DNA from: an uncultured Candidatus Bathyarchaeia archaeon
Lineage (GTDB): Archaea; Thermoproteota; Bathyarchaeia; Bathyarchaeales; Bathyarchaeaceae
Direction: 5' to 3'
Length of the DNA: 46,958 bases
Assembly: GCA_964347855.1 (NCBI GenBank)
Contig: CAYGAE010000002.1
Location: 1-46,958 of the forward strand
In this document: positions 1,702 to 41,976 of the stretch, piece by piece
How the letters are laid out: the number at the start of each line of letters is the position of its first letter
Numbering within the stretch: the stretch's first letter is position 1
The notes under the pieces: generated by a model
Databases searched by the model: none
What the model was told of the DNA's origin: nothing
What the model saw: the letters and a program-made list of their open reading frames with translations, nothing else
Made by a program: the position numbers and the translations under genes

Positions 1702-1980
1702 GTGATGAAAAGAATGTACGAGAAAGGTTTGCCAGAAAAAGCGGTTCAAAAGTCACTTGAGTCAAAACTCAAAGGGGATTTCACCTACGATTCCAGAAGG
1801 ATTTTGGGGGCGCGCAAAACCGATGTCAAGTCGATAGCTGAAGAGTTGAGAAGAAGCCGCTGGGCTATCTCCCTTTTTCCAGGGTACATTAGAGTTGTGA
1901 TCATGCCAGACGTCAGATCTTCGCCTATCGAACATTTTCCTAAAGATTTGAAGACAACTCCAGAGAAGCTAGGGGGATAA
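1702..1980 (+). pseudogene. internally deleted remnant of MfnA-type PLP-dependent (aspartate/tyrosine) decarboxylase, still in frame
   Basis: 92-aa ORF. The first ~33 aa (MYEKGLPEKAVQKSLESKLKGDFTYDSRRILG) resemble the MfnA N-terminus. The last ~50 aa (SIAEELRRSRWAIS...YIRVVIMPDVRSSPIEHF) resemble the MfnA C-terminus. About 300 central codons, including the PLP-lysine region, are absent. The junction carries GCGCGC (1810-1815). Confidence 0.55.
1810..1815. repeat. GCGCGC at the deletion junction of the decarboxylase remnant
   Basis: Read directly: ttggggGCGCGCaaaac. It lies between the N- and C-terminal homology blocks. Confidence 0.9.
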
Positions 1981-1995
1981 TCGGAGGACTATTGG

Positions 1996-3255
1996 TTGAG
2001 TAAACATCCTTCCAAAGACATCATTGGAACAGAAGGAGACGAACTGAGAGGGAAAAGAGTTGTCTTATGTATAACCGGAAGCGTAGCGGCCGTTCGTTGC
2101 TCTGAAATTGCCAGAGCATTGATGAGGCATGGTGCAGAGGTTTTTGCTGTCATGTCAGAGATGGCTCAAAAGATTATTCATCCGTATTTAATGGAGTGGG
2201 CGACAGGGAACCCTGTTCTAACAGAATTGACCGGCAAGGTTGAGCACGTAGCACTGGTAGGGATGCATCTGAAAAAAGCTGATTTAGTCCTTGCTGCTCC
2301 AGCTACTGCCAACACCATCAGCAAGATTGCGTGCGGGATTGATGATACGCCAGTAACCTCTGTTGTATCAACTGCTTTTGGATCGGAGATTCCGATAGTG
2401 ATTGTTCCAGCCATGCACGAATCTATGTACAGGCATCCGATTGTGGTTGAGAACATAGAGAAGCTCAGAGCGTTGGGTATCGAATTTGTTGGACCCAAGA
2501 TTGAGGAAGGGAAGGCTAAGATAGCCGAGGTCACAAAAATTCTGGAGGCTGTTATCAACAGACTGAGGATTAAGAGAGATTTCGCTGAAATGATGGTCTT
2601 GATCACTGCCGGTCCCACTTTGGAGCACATTGATCCAGTGAGGGTGATTACGAATAGAAGTTCTGGGAAGATGGGTATTGCCCTTGCAAAGGAGGCTTTA
2701 AATCGGGGGGCTGATGTGACTTTAATCTATGGTCCGGGAACCGCCGTTCCTCCCACTGAGGCAAAGGTTGTTTTAGTTGAAACTACTGAAGAAATGTATG
2801 ACACTGTAGTTTCTGAGTTGAAGTCGAAGAGATACGACATTGTTGTTGCAGCTGCGGCTGCCGCCGATTGGAGACCCGTGAAAACCCTTGATTACAAGGT
2901 TTCTACGAGTGATGTATCTGAGTTTTCAGTGAAGCTGAGGTCAACACAAAAGATCATTAGCGCTGTTAAGACGATCAATGCTGATGTTTTCTTGGTGCCT
3001 TTTAAGGCGGAGTTTAGCTTGTCTAATGAAGAGTTGGTTGAGCGTGGTTATAGGCGACTTGTGGACGCGGAAGCCGACTTGATTGTGGTGAATGATATTG
3101 GAAGAAATGGAGCTGGATTCGGGGTCGAAACAAACGAGGTCTTCATCGTCGATAGAGAAAAGAATGTTGTACATATCCCACTTATGCTGAAAAGCGACAT
3201 TGCGAGACAAGTTTTTGACTTGATTTCAGAAAGAATCAAGTTAAAACAGGTGTAA
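1996..3255 (+). CDS. coaBC: bifunctional phosphopantothenoylcysteine decarboxylase / phosphopantothenate-cysteine ligase
   Basis: 419 aa. N-terminal flavoprotein domain (VVLCITGSVAA, PAMH) plus C-terminal DFP/CoaB domain (ITAGPT.E.IDPVR.ITN.SSGKMG). TTG start. Confidence 0.9.
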   Translation: MSKHPSKDIIGTEGDELRGKRVVLCITGSVAAVRCSEIARALMRHGAEVFAVMSEMAQKIIHPYLMEWATGNPVLTELTGKVEHVALVGMHLKKADLVLAAPATANTISKIACGIDDTPVTSVVSTAFGSEIPIVIVPAMHESMYRHPIVVENIEKLRALGIEFVGPKIEEGKAKIAEVTKILEAVINRLRIKRDFAEMMVLITAGPTLEHIDPVRVITNRSSGKMGIALAKEALNRGADVTLIYGPGTAVPPTEAKVVLVETTEEMYDTVVSELKSKRYDIVVAAAAAADWRPVKTLDYKVSTSDVSEFSVKLRSTQKIISAVKTINADVFLVPFKAEFSLSNEELVERGYRRLVDAEADLIVVNDIGRNGAGFGVETNEVFIVDREKNVVHIPLMLKSDIARQVFDLISERIKLKQV

Positions 3256-3261
3256 TAATCC

Positions 3262-3729
3262 ATGAAGCAGTTTGAGACAGTAGCTGTTGGTGGAACCTTT
3301 GACGAGTTCCATAGAGGTCACCGAGCCTTGCTGAAGAAGGCTTTTGAAGTTGGAAATCATGTTCTTATCGGTCTATGTTCAGACGATTTCGTGAAAAAGT
3401 TGAAGAAACCGCATCGAATCGCGGCCTATGAAAAGCGTTTGGAAGAATTGAAGAATTTTTTGGGAAAACGTGGGGTCTTGGAGAGAGCGGAGATCGTTCC
3501 ATTGAATGACCCTTATGGTGTCACGGTTTCGAAAAACCGCCTCGATGCCATTGTTGTGAGTGAGGAAACAGAGCCAAGAGCTCGTGAAATTAATGACAAA
3601 CGAAAGAGGAACGGATTCCCAATCTTAAAGATTGTTGTCATAGACATGGTCCTCGCAGAAGACTATTTTCCCATCTCATCCACCAGAATTTGGCTAGAAG
3701 AAATTGATCGCGAAGGACACTTGCTCTAG
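3262..3729 (+). CDS. coaD: phosphopantetheine adenylyltransferase, archaeal/eukaryotic type (cytidylyltransferase fold)
   Basis: 155 aa with GGTFDEFHRGH nucleotidyltransferase motif. Immediately downstream of coaBC. Confidence 0.8.
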   Translation: MKQFETVAVGGTFDEFHRGHRALLKKAFEVGNHVLIGLCSDDFVKKLKKPHRIAAYEKRLEELKNFLGKRGVLERAEIVPLNDPYGVTVSKNRLDAIVVSEETEPRAREINDKRKRNGFPILKIVVIDMVLAEDYFPISSTRIWLEEIDREGHLL

Positions 3730-3818
3730 AGTCATTCCTCAGAAGGGCATGCTTAGAGGATTATTCTATCTACATTCCCTACTAGAACACGAGTGATGTC
3801 TTGAAGAGAACTGGTGTT

Positions 3819-3827
3819 GCGCGCGCG
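3819..3827. repeat. alternating (GC) tract, 9 nt
   Basis: ttGCGCGCGCGtgtgcg, a 15-nt Pu/Py alternation. It sits in a convergent gap, 11 nt past the stop of gene 3838-4248. Confidence 0.95.
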
Positions 3828-3837
3828 TGTGCGTTGT

Positions 3838-4345: not shown

Positions 4346-5155
4346 TCAAGGTTGAGTGTTGGTTGTGGTGGATGTTATCGCTCGCTTTTCTTTGGTTGGT
4401 ACAAGAACGGATAAGAATAGCCAACCAACGAGGATTAACCCTAAGAAAGCGACAATCACAGTTCCAGTCCTGCCCGTAGATCGCATAAGCAAGTCTACTA
4501 CTGCAGTGTAGAAGTTACCCTCGATTGGGCGTATGAACAGCGCATAATAGTTAAAGAATGGACGTAAGACCCACGCCAGTTGGGTTCCAACAAACATAAG
4601 GATCACGCTTCCCAGTATAAACGCTGGCTTCCAGTTCTCTGAAGACCCACGGTACAAAGTTTCGGCACCTTTGACAAAATAGGTCAACGCAAAAAATCCG
4701 CCCAAAGCGAAAATCGCTATGTTGAGAAGAGCCATAAAGTCATGAGTTCCATGAGACCTGGGGGACGTAAGTATAAAAAACAGGTTTACTGGCACCAACG
4801 CTATGAGAACTGTTGACATCACGGTGAACCCAAGCAACAAAAGCATAACAGTTTGACCCAGAGTTCGTTTGCCGCCAAGAAGTGAATATAGCACATAATA
4901 GCTTGGAATGGAAACGTAAAGAGAAACTAGAAGGAGCATTGGAACTTTCATCGCACTGTAGAGAATCTGTAATCCGCTCCCATAGATTCCCATAGTCGCT
5001 CCATAGATCGCAGACAGTACCAGAATAGATAAGTTGGAGCTGACAAAATAGGATGGAATTTTTGTTTCATCAATCAAGTTCTTGAGAAATTGATCTCTCC
5101 GCTTGATAAATTCTTCCACAACAGAGAATACTTTCAATACGAACGCCGAAAACAT
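4346..5155 (-). CDS. polytopic integral membrane protein, family unassigned
   Basis: 269 aa with 5-6 hydrophobic segments. A TATA-like TTTAAATTTTT (5174-5184) lies ~20-25 nt upstream of the ATG, suggesting a leaderless transcript. Confidence 0.6.
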   Translation of the reverse strand: MFSAFVLKVFSVVEEFIKRRDQFLKNLIDETKIPSYFVSSNLSILVLSAIYGATMGIYGSGLQILYSAMKVPMLLLVSLYVSIPSYYVLYSLLGGKRTLGQTVMLLLLGFTVMSTVLIALVPVNLFFILTSPRSHGTHDFMALLNIAIFALGGFFALTYFVKGAETLYRGSSENWKPAFILGSVILMFVGTQLAWVLRPFFNYYALFIRPIEGNFYTAVVDLLMRSTGRTGTVIVAFLGLILVGWLFLSVLVPTKEKRAITSTTTNTQP

Positions 5156-5173
5156 AGTTGTGGGAAACTTCGC

Positions 5174-5184
5174 TTTAAATTTTT
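5174..5184 (-). promoter_or_regulatory. putative TATA box of membrane gene 4346-5155 (leaderless spacing)
   Basis: Minus strand reads AAAAATTTAAA ~20-29 nt upstream of ATG 5155, directly abutting the (GC)4 tract. Confidence 0.35.
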
Positions 5185-5185
5185 G

Positions 5186-5193
5186 GCGCGCGC
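5186..5193. repeat. alternating (GC)4 tract
   Basis: ttgGCGCGCGCaatag. Immediately upstream of the TATA-like box of the minus-strand membrane gene, and at the 5-prime edge of the HhH remnant. Confidence 0.95.
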
Positions 5194-5513
5194 AATAGAA
5201 AGCTGTGAAGCGGGCTACGAGTTTCAGCCGAGGAATTATGAGGAGTTGCTGGCTATCAGAGGAATTGGACCAGTAGCCGTTTGTGGGATCGCTTTGATAT
5301 CAGAACTTGTTTACGGCGAAACACTAAGTTGGAAGGATCCTGTGAAGTTTTCCCTTTGCGTATTGTGGTAAGGACGGCGTGTCGTTTCCATTGGATAGAG
5401 GGGCAGTGGATGAGTCCTTTGAGGTTTTAGAGACTGCCATCAAGAGGGCGCGGATAGGTGATCAAGAGCGGTTGAGGTCTTTGCAGAGGCTACGCCGATG
5501 TGTTCCTGTTTGA
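5194..5513 (+). pseudogene. 5-prime-truncated, frameshifted remnant of an HhH-containing (DUF763-like) gene
   Basis: One frame reads NYEELLAIRGIGPVAVCGIALISELVYGETLSWKDPVKF and stops at 5369-5371. The +1 frame continues FAYCGKDGVSFPLDRGAVDESFEVLETAIKRARIG... to TGA at 5511-5513. No N-terminal ~280 aa is present, and homology begins directly after the (GC)4 tract at 5186-5193. Confidence 0.45.
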
Positions 5514-27734: not shown

Positions 27735-27745
27735 GCGCGCGCGCG
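27735..27745. repeat. alternating (GC)5.5 tract
   Basis: cctGCGCGCGCGCGatg. 22 nt upstream of TTTTAATATT (27768-27777), the putative hdrC1 TATA box. Confidence 0.95.
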
Positions 27746-41127: not shown

Positions 41128-41135
41128 GCGCGCGC
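41128..41135. repeat. alternating (GC)4 tract
   Basis: aattGCGCGCGCtgcc. On the minus strand it lies 12 nt upstream of TATAAATA, the putative hdrC2 TATA box. Confidence 0.95.
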
Positions 41136-41966: not shown

Positions 41967-41976
41967 GCGCGCGCGC
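41967..41976. repeat. alternating (GC)5 tract
   Basis: ggGCGCGCGCGCcgcgctAAAATATATAT. 6 nt upstream of the TATA-like box of the CxxCH gene. Confidence 0.95.

Follow-up and report, generated by a model that had tools for sequence, protein, structure and literature searches.

The short open reading frame (ORF) at positions 1714 to 1980 on the plus strand of the window, the 46,958-nucleotide stretch of Bathyarchaeia DNA that we analyzed, is very probably a relic, fixed in its lineage, of mfnA, the gene for the archaeal PLP-dependent tyrosine/aspartate decarboxylase; it represents one of repeated losses of this gene within the order. Our analysis establishes the homology of both ends of the ORF, the position of the breakpoints, the synteny of the locus, a joint inherited in common and a genome with neither a second mfnA nor a panD, and we infer from these that one deletion event made the relic.

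A probable mfnA relic in the coenzyme A precursor operon

The window opens with 3.7 kb of a coenzyme A (CoA) precursor operon, encoded throughout on the plus strand. Its first gene in the window, panE (ketopantoate reductase; 54 to 944), matches PF02558 and PF08546 (E values of 1e-29 to 1e-30) and is followed by panB (ketopantoate hydroxymethyltransferase; 941 to 1696; PF02548, E value of 4e-95), the start of which overlaps the panE stop. The relic ORF, comprising 88 codons and a TAA stop, separates panB from coaBC (phosphopantothenoylcysteine synthetase/decarboxylase; 1996 to 3255; PF02441 and PF04127), and the gene for an archaeal-type phosphopantetheine adenylyltransferase (PPAT; 3262 to 3729; PF01467, E value of 1e-16) completes the operon. 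An in-frame GTG at 1702 extends the relic ORF upstream to 92 codons (1702 to 1980); an earlier note on this DNA had reported this 92-codon form between panB and coaBC, its ends joined by ARK, and it is present exactly as described. Public gene calls give 88- or 91-codon forms, and the start is likely to be the ATG at 1714, which stands behind a GGTGA Shine-Dalgarno (SD)-like motif. A further SD-like motif, GGAGGA (1983 to 1988), read from the sequence 2 nt past the relic stop and 7 nt short of the TTG that starts coaBC, is conserved in L028, L044 and G070.

Both ends of the relic resemble MfnA well above chance, as the earlier note had claimed. The NCBIfam MfnA model TIGR03812 matches the ORF in two stretches (E value of 1.1e-6), a weak N-terminal one covering model positions ~2 to 37 and a C-terminal one covering positions 321/323 to 373 of 375, with a score of 27.8 bits against a curated cutoff of 299.4 bits, so that the ORF falls below the family threshold. 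Searches with phmmer against the full-length MfnA proteins of relatives returned E values of 6e-25 to 1e-17, and every such match consisted of one N-terminal and one C-terminal domain. In a profile built from 12 full-length proteins of relatives, with residue numbering counted from MKRM, residues 2 to 39 of the relic align with profile positions 4 to 41 and residues 39 to 88 with positions 340 to 389. The intervening 298 positions (42 to 339) are absent, and among them is the DPHKMG motif, the lysine of which binds PLP in group II decarboxylases; the proposal that about 300 codons including the PLP site had been lost in frame is thus borne out, and the breakpoints that an alignment with MfnA orthologs was expected to define lie at profile positions 41 and 340. 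A Pfam search of the short ORF gave no match up to an E value of 10, PF00282 included, because the surviving ends lie at or beyond the edges of that domain model, and a sequence search of the PDB gave only weak MfnA matches (E values of 0.08 to 0.5) mixed with chance matches to LHC proteins. In comparison with the MfnA/TK1814-type archaeal PLP-dependent L-tyrosine/L-aspartate decarboxylases (TIGR03812; structures 3F9T, 6JY1 and 6LDR), the relic is homologous over the N-terminal 32 and C-terminal 52 residues and occupies the slot of mfnA in the panB-mfnA-coaBC operon of relatives but lacks ~298 residues together with the PLP-lysine motif; it cannot be an enzyme of the MfnA family or a decarboxylase.

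Structure of the joint

The N-terminal piece, M1 to G32 (MYEKGLPEKAVQKSLESKLKGDFTYDSRRILG; 1714 to 1809), is homologous to MfnA residues ~4 to 38 in both phmmer and profile alignments, and the C-terminal piece (DVKSIAEELRRSRWAISLFPGYIRVVIMPDVRSSPIEHFPKDLKTTPEKLGG; 1822 to 1977) is homologous to the last ~52 residues and ends at the ancestral stop position. Between them lies a joint (1810 to 1821) that is common to all alleles and consists of GCGCGCAAA, encoding Ala-Arg-Lys (1810 to 1818) and containing GCGCGC at 1810 to 1815, followed by ACC, a Thr codon that can be aligned with either side. A single internal deletion of ~894 bp (~298 codons) would have taken the whole PLP-binding large domain, DPHKMG included, and would have fused the first 32 and last 52 codons of mfnA in frame, leaving an ORF bounded by the original start and stop codons. 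The ARK codons stand where full-length genes read Ser-Met-Cys, with eight of the nine bases differing, and these bases are most plausibly part of the junction event itself. As an alternative, the deletion may have occurred by microhomology between in-phase Ile-Leu/Val-Gly codons (I-[LV]-G), which lie 297 to 298 codons apart in all full-length genes; this requires an extra two-codon gap, and an ungapped alignment at the joint leaves ARK without explanation.

Inheritance of the deletion

The identical joint was found in seven assemblies that carry three sequence-distinct alleles, 2.3 to 9.5% apart. The same ORF and joint occur in the public contigs JABAOC010009453 (L029/L042) and JABAOH010007687 (L043) and in the Logan assemblies ERR2564004 (L138), SRR34261233 (L028), SRR24270831 (L136) and SRR34261245 (L137), and the alleles fall into three groups, one comprising the window, L043 and L138, one comprising L029 and one comprising L028, L136 and L137; the L028-type allele differs from the window at 25 of 264 bases. 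One further contig, L044, was left out of the allele comparisons as a poor scaffold: it has a gap of ~41 nt in the relic marked NN, seven private changes, six of them within 46 nt of the gap, and a 5-nt insertion in coaBC, and its frame break looks like the product of scaffold-end errors. All alleles except L044 keep the relic ORF open and retain the SD motif and the ATG.

One joint carried by three diverged alleles across seven assemblies shows that the deletion has been inherited and is not a product of assembly collapse. The suggestion that the short ORF was an assembly or population variant, the organism truly possessing a full-length mfnA, would draw on the nature of the genome, a 164-contig MAG with 6% contamination; it is extremely improbable, as the seven assemblies come from different runs and projects, no full-length mfnA was found anywhere in the genome of the window, and protein and contig searches found no close full-length relative. 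A scan of the genome contigs with the short protein as the query gave no match. The mfnA deletion has very probably become fixed in a genus-level lineage, and it predates the separation of at least two sublineages.

Two local differences between the window and L029 were also observed. The two sequences differ by six bases within 17 nt (1896 to 1912; VIMPDV versus VIKPHI) and are otherwise 99.8 to 100% identical across panE, panB and coaBC; the window version of this segment is real, since it recurs in ERR2564004, and the difference looks like a small multibase replacement or recombination patch. In JABAOC010009453 (L029, 2435 to 4057), short segments of coaBC and PPAT present in the window are missing, and both genes are called as truncated there, probably through an assembly defect.

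Loss of mfnA in related genomes

We sampled 401 genomes of the same order, 66 of which have panB, and inspected the DNA downstream of panB in ~60. A full mfnA of ~390 codons followed directly by coaBC was present at ~50 of these 60 loci, and panB-mfnA-coaBC is for this reason taken as the ancestral order, which places the relic in the position of mfnA. Descent of the relic from mfnA is indicated both by this orthologous position between panB and coaBC and by the phmmer match of its N- and C-terminal domains (E value of 6e-25). A class-wide search for further relics found none, as panB never precedes mfnA or coaBC outside this order, and no further genomes of family f6 were found in which relics could be sought.

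The remaining loci document all stages from the full gene to nothing, and of the three alternatives put forward in the earlier note, a decaying locus is the one that fits best. G108 has an in-frame ORF of ~122 codons, annotated by NCBI as a hypothetical protein, that joins N-terminal residues 1 to 50 to C-terminal residues 305 to 391; no other alleles of it were found. In G068, a 21-codon in-frame ORF consists of 16 N-terminal codons, the last four codons and the native stop, and four genomes of the same genus have a full mfnA. The remnant in G093 is out of frame, those in G138 and G070 are degenerate (~115 and ~170 nt, respectively), with an ORF that still spans nearly to the native stop, and in G020 and G039 no mfnA remnant is left. 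Full-length mfnA with two frameshifts was found in G141 (L071); in G368 (L082), a full-length mfnA is frameshifted and coaBC is frameshifted too. These two genes are either early pseudogenes or the result of assembly indel errors. No second mfnA was detected in any of the relic or loss genomes examined. In a coaBC tree, G068, G108 and G138 branch successively around G014, which has the full-length gene; G093 is the sister of the full-length G144; and the window groups with G020 and G070, beside the full-length G010 and G023. These placements imply at least five independent losses of mfnA. We considered a single old deletion behind both the window relic and the g5 remnants and judged it unlikely, given that synonymous sites between the genera concerned are saturated, yet the relic keeps 15 to 16 of 18 invariant residues.

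The arrangement of mfnA varies among genera that retain it. In genus g15, the operon reads PPS-panE-panB-mfnA-coaBC-PPAT-mfnB (PPS being phosphopantothenate synthetase), joining CoA and methanofuran biosynthesis around a shared decarboxylase, and in other genera mfnA lies beside mfnB or PPS without panB. These arrangements were seen at G014 C19 9739 to 15182, G068 C134, G019 C1 912273 to 914059 and G006/G021 (L019 and L020).

Of the relics, three are in frame, one is out of frame and two are ambiguous; the 3:1 ratio, set against an expectation of one in three, gives a P value of ~0.11, and the recurrence of in-frame relics is a hint only. A library of representative proteins contained another N- plus C-terminal fusion, P0014 (81 amino acids), together with C-terminal fragments, but it is unfit for frame statistics, since out-of-frame relics are not called as proteins. 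Such recurrence raises a rather unlikely explanation in which the relic has been held open by a need for translation and not for the sequence that it encodes, only in-frame or ORF-preserving deletions surviving at this site. Ribosomes reading the relic would guard the operon mRNA against premature termination of the polarity type; alternatively, initiation at the essential coaBC-PPAT genes would be coupled to translation of the relic. Polarity exists in archaea, and coupling works at distances of <30 nt in Haloferax (both reviewed in PMC12548453); the 15 nt that separate the relic stop from the coaBC start fall inside this range. In three independent lineages (the window, G108 and G068), the clear relics preserve the reading frame down to the native stop, the ORFs of G070 and G138 span the scrambled remnant to within 0 to 7 nt of that stop, and the SD motif and ATG of the relic are retained, with a stronger SD in the L028 allele. 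Against this, coaBC has a good SD of its own, G093 leaves a stretch of ~60 nt untranslated, G020 and G039 manage without any remnant, the frame count yields only the P value given above, and a requirement for translation predicts no amino acid constraint, so that a dN/dS of 0.3 is left unexplained. On this reading, the relic would resemble translated upstream ORFs that act in coupling or against polarity (PMC12548453) in that it ends 15 nt before an essential gene in a tight operon and in that in-frame relics recur; it departs from them in the SD of coaBC and in the one out-of-frame counterexample.

Possible selection on the relic

The relic differs more between the two sublineages than any other part of the operon, by 9.5% compared with 6.0% for coaBC, 4.1% for panB, 3.7% for panE and 3.7% for PPAT; intergenic differences amount to 7 of 94 and 0 of 59 bases (0 to 7%). 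Its total divergence is about twice that of the flanks and close to the dS of the flanks, and its dN of 0.061 exceeds that of the neighboring genes two- to fivefold. Eighteen residues are near invariant (at least 90% conserved in 53 full-length MfnA proteins), and the relic lacks two or three of them: a Gly and a His are replaced, and single alleles lose a further His or Met. A single-sequence AlphaFold model of the relic had a pLDDT of 47.6 and no confident fold.

The pattern of substitution nevertheless appears to depart from that of a fully neutral relic, of which an omega of 0.30 is not expected. In the deepest allele pair, the 25 differences fall in 11 synonymous and 11 nonsynonymous codons, against ~6 and 17 expected under neutrality; a GY94 likelihood ratio test on this one deep lineage pair gave an omega of 0.30 (P value of 0.008), another allele pair gave an omega of 0.38 (P value of 0.049), and simulations of neutral mutation gave P values of 0.004 to 0.016. 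Codon position counts of 7:6:12 (P value of ~0.09) are not significant alone. A reading of the relic as neutral, based on a flat codon spectrum of 9:12:12, was withdrawn, as the spectrum becomes 7:7:12 without L044 and the dN/dS tests reject neutrality. Constraint that is relaxed yet present would be compatible with a peptide of slight benefit, or with one that is produced regardless and in which harmful changes are selected against.

The significantly depressed omega could be taken as a sign that purifying selection maintains the 88-amino-acid N- plus C-terminal fusion as a small protein with a function, for instance as a module for binding or regulation. Nonsynonymous changes are confined to the joint, the C-terminal tail and one cluster, residues 15 to 34 and 38 to 63 having only synonymous changes; G108 independently retains N- and C-terminal pieces in frame, and P0014 has the same kind of structure. 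We consider such a function unlikely: the omega value comes from one lineage pair with 25 differences and the codon position periodicity is weak, the raised dN, the replaced Gly and His and the low-confidence fold described above point the other way, the breakpoints vary between lineages, the remnants in sister genomes are scrambled or gone, and no homologous family of short proteins was found beyond sporadic relics and fragments. On the question of whether the 88-amino-acid product has any function of its own, we lean modestly toward none.

The relic is catalytically dead and, in that respect, an object of an ordinary kind. Like unitary pseudogenes and the relics of reductive evolution, it has no catalytic core, its divergence is raised, invariant residues have been lost and its relatives form a decay series down to clean absence; unlike typical unitary pseudogenes, it is a clean ORF with a start, an SD motif and the native stop, and its dN/dS is ~0.3 rather than 1. 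As a separate observation, panE and panB have dN/dS values of 0.29 to 0.40 (window versus L137 and L028), compared with 0.11 to 0.22 for coaBC and PPAT, and constraint on the pantoate branch may have loosened once mfnA was lost.

(GC)n tracts and breakpoints

The GCGCGC within the joint belongs to a class of (GC)n tracts that is abundant in this genome, in which GCGCGCGC occurs in 341 copies compared with ~16 expected from base composition (~21-fold). The enrichment is limited to this family, with 15 to 442 copies per genome, as opposed to 0 to 28 in the other families of the order. Under a crude ORF mask, tracts of at least 8 nt are ~15 times denser outside ORFs and those of 6 to 7 nt ~5 times denser; most of the (GC)n tracts in the window are intergenic, often beside TATA-like boxes. 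A tract of this kind lies at three breakpoints in the window: at 1810 (the mfnA joint), at 3819 (where synteny with the sister lineage ends) and at 5186 (in a truncated DUF763-like gene). The probability of a tract falling by chance on the 9-nt mfnA joint is ~0.003 at coding density and 0.02 at noncoding density. The earlier note had called an in-frame joint bearing the GC motif unusual; the tract is indeed a notable coincidence and in-frame relics do recur, but the count is small (3:1:2).

Other (GC)n tracts of the window include those at 3819 to 3827, 5186 to 5193, 27735 to 27745, 41128 to 41135 and 41967 to 41976, and contig ends are ~2.7-fold enriched for such tracts within 100 to 200 nt. 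Comparison of window positions 3726 to 3830 with the sister lineage L136 (2194 to 2330) revealed collinearity for 94 nt past the PPAT stop that breaks off right at the (GC)n tract of 3819 to 3827; beyond it, the window and L136 carry unrelated genes, and in L136 a GGGCGCGCGCGG tract follows after another 23 nt. At 5090 to 5371 (plus strand), the window contains a fragment of a DUF763-like gene that matches the C-terminal part of a 455-amino-acid ORF located after panB in G018 (L037). Homology to the DUF763-like protein starts just after GCGCGCGC (Leu-Ala-Arg-Ala, 5186 to 5193), which is itself just upstream of the TATA-like box of a divergent gene (4346 to 5155, minus strand), and breaks off before the end.

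It is tempting to suppose that the (GC)n tracts mark the sites of a process specific to this lineage (recombination, repair or mobile DNA) that deletes and swaps blocks of DNA and of which the mfnA deletion is one product, but we regard this as quite doubtful; no (GC)n tract lies at the joint of the other independent mfnA deletions in relatives. The closest parallel is HIP1, the highly iterated palindrome of cyanobacteria (GCGATCGC), which has been reported to flank spontaneous deletions. In both cases a short GC palindrome is strongly overrepresented in a single lineage, the one described here coinciding with a deletion joint and two further breakpoints; in contrast to HIP1, the motif is (GC)n, mostly intergenic and beside TATA-like boxes, and no undeleted allele was seen with a motif on each side.

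Supply of beta-alanine and methanofuran precursors

The genome of the window, which is 94% complete, was searched for an intact mfnA, panD or pantothenate transporter gene, as had been proposed. No intact mfnA was found elsewhere, the best other match to TIGR03812 scoring 102 bits against the cutoff of 299, and neither PanD, the pantothenate transporter PanF nor MfnB was detected in this genome. The CoA genes that it keeps are panE, panB, coaBC and the PPAT gene, with those for pantoate kinase and PPS on contig C88. Archaeal CoA synthesis joins beta-alanine to 4-phosphopantoate, and the only recognized archaeal source of beta-alanine is a GAD/MfnA-type decarboxylase (Tomita 2014), both according to PMC6650551. 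With the CoA pathway kept and mfnA and panD absent, beta-alanine should come either from the surroundings or from another, unrecognized enzyme. The earlier suggestion of another beta-alanine source therefore holds to the extent that the retained pathway requires one.

One candidate source, unproven, is a paralogue on contig C6 of the same genome (L001, 1162 to 2664), a 500-amino-acid group II PLP decarboxylase (PF00282, 211 bits), the gene for which adjoins a branched-chain amino acid ABC permease gene. It scores far below the cutoffs for PanP and diaminobutyrate decarboxylase and is nearest to aromatic amino acid decarboxylases and also to diaminobutyrate decarboxylases. Similar paralogues occur in G068, G108, G014, G011 and G022. 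The paralogue is not a consistent substitute for MfnA, because it is absent from five genomes that lack mfnA (G020, G004, G138, G093 and G039) and present in G014, which has mfnA.

Two genes for Ftr (formylmethanofuran:H4MPT formyltransferase) were found on contigs C121 and C132 of this genome, with no MfnB and no MfnA; methanofuran-bound C1 units are therefore used, and the organism seems to use methanofuran without the ability to make its tyramine and furan parts. If the organism does make methanofuran, tyramine would likewise have to come from another enzyme or from the surroundings. In the family to which the genome of the window belongs, panB is present in 12 of 60 genomes and PPS in 13 of 60, and MfnB is confined to five genera; loss of cofactor precursor genes is common in this group.

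The series from full gene to in-frame miniature, scrambled remnant and finally nothing is a natural record of the removal of a gene from the middle of an essential operon, and it offers a testable case of whether polarity or coupling shapes the deletions that survive in archaea. This organism and several of its relatives have independently given up the only recognized archaeal route to beta-alanine and, with it, to the tyramine used in methanofuran. Loss of mfnA with the pantoate branch, pantoate kinase, PPS, coaBC and PPAT kept points to cross-feeding or to an unrecognized source of beta-alanine in Bathyarchaeia and cautions against scoring the CoA pathway by gene presence alone.
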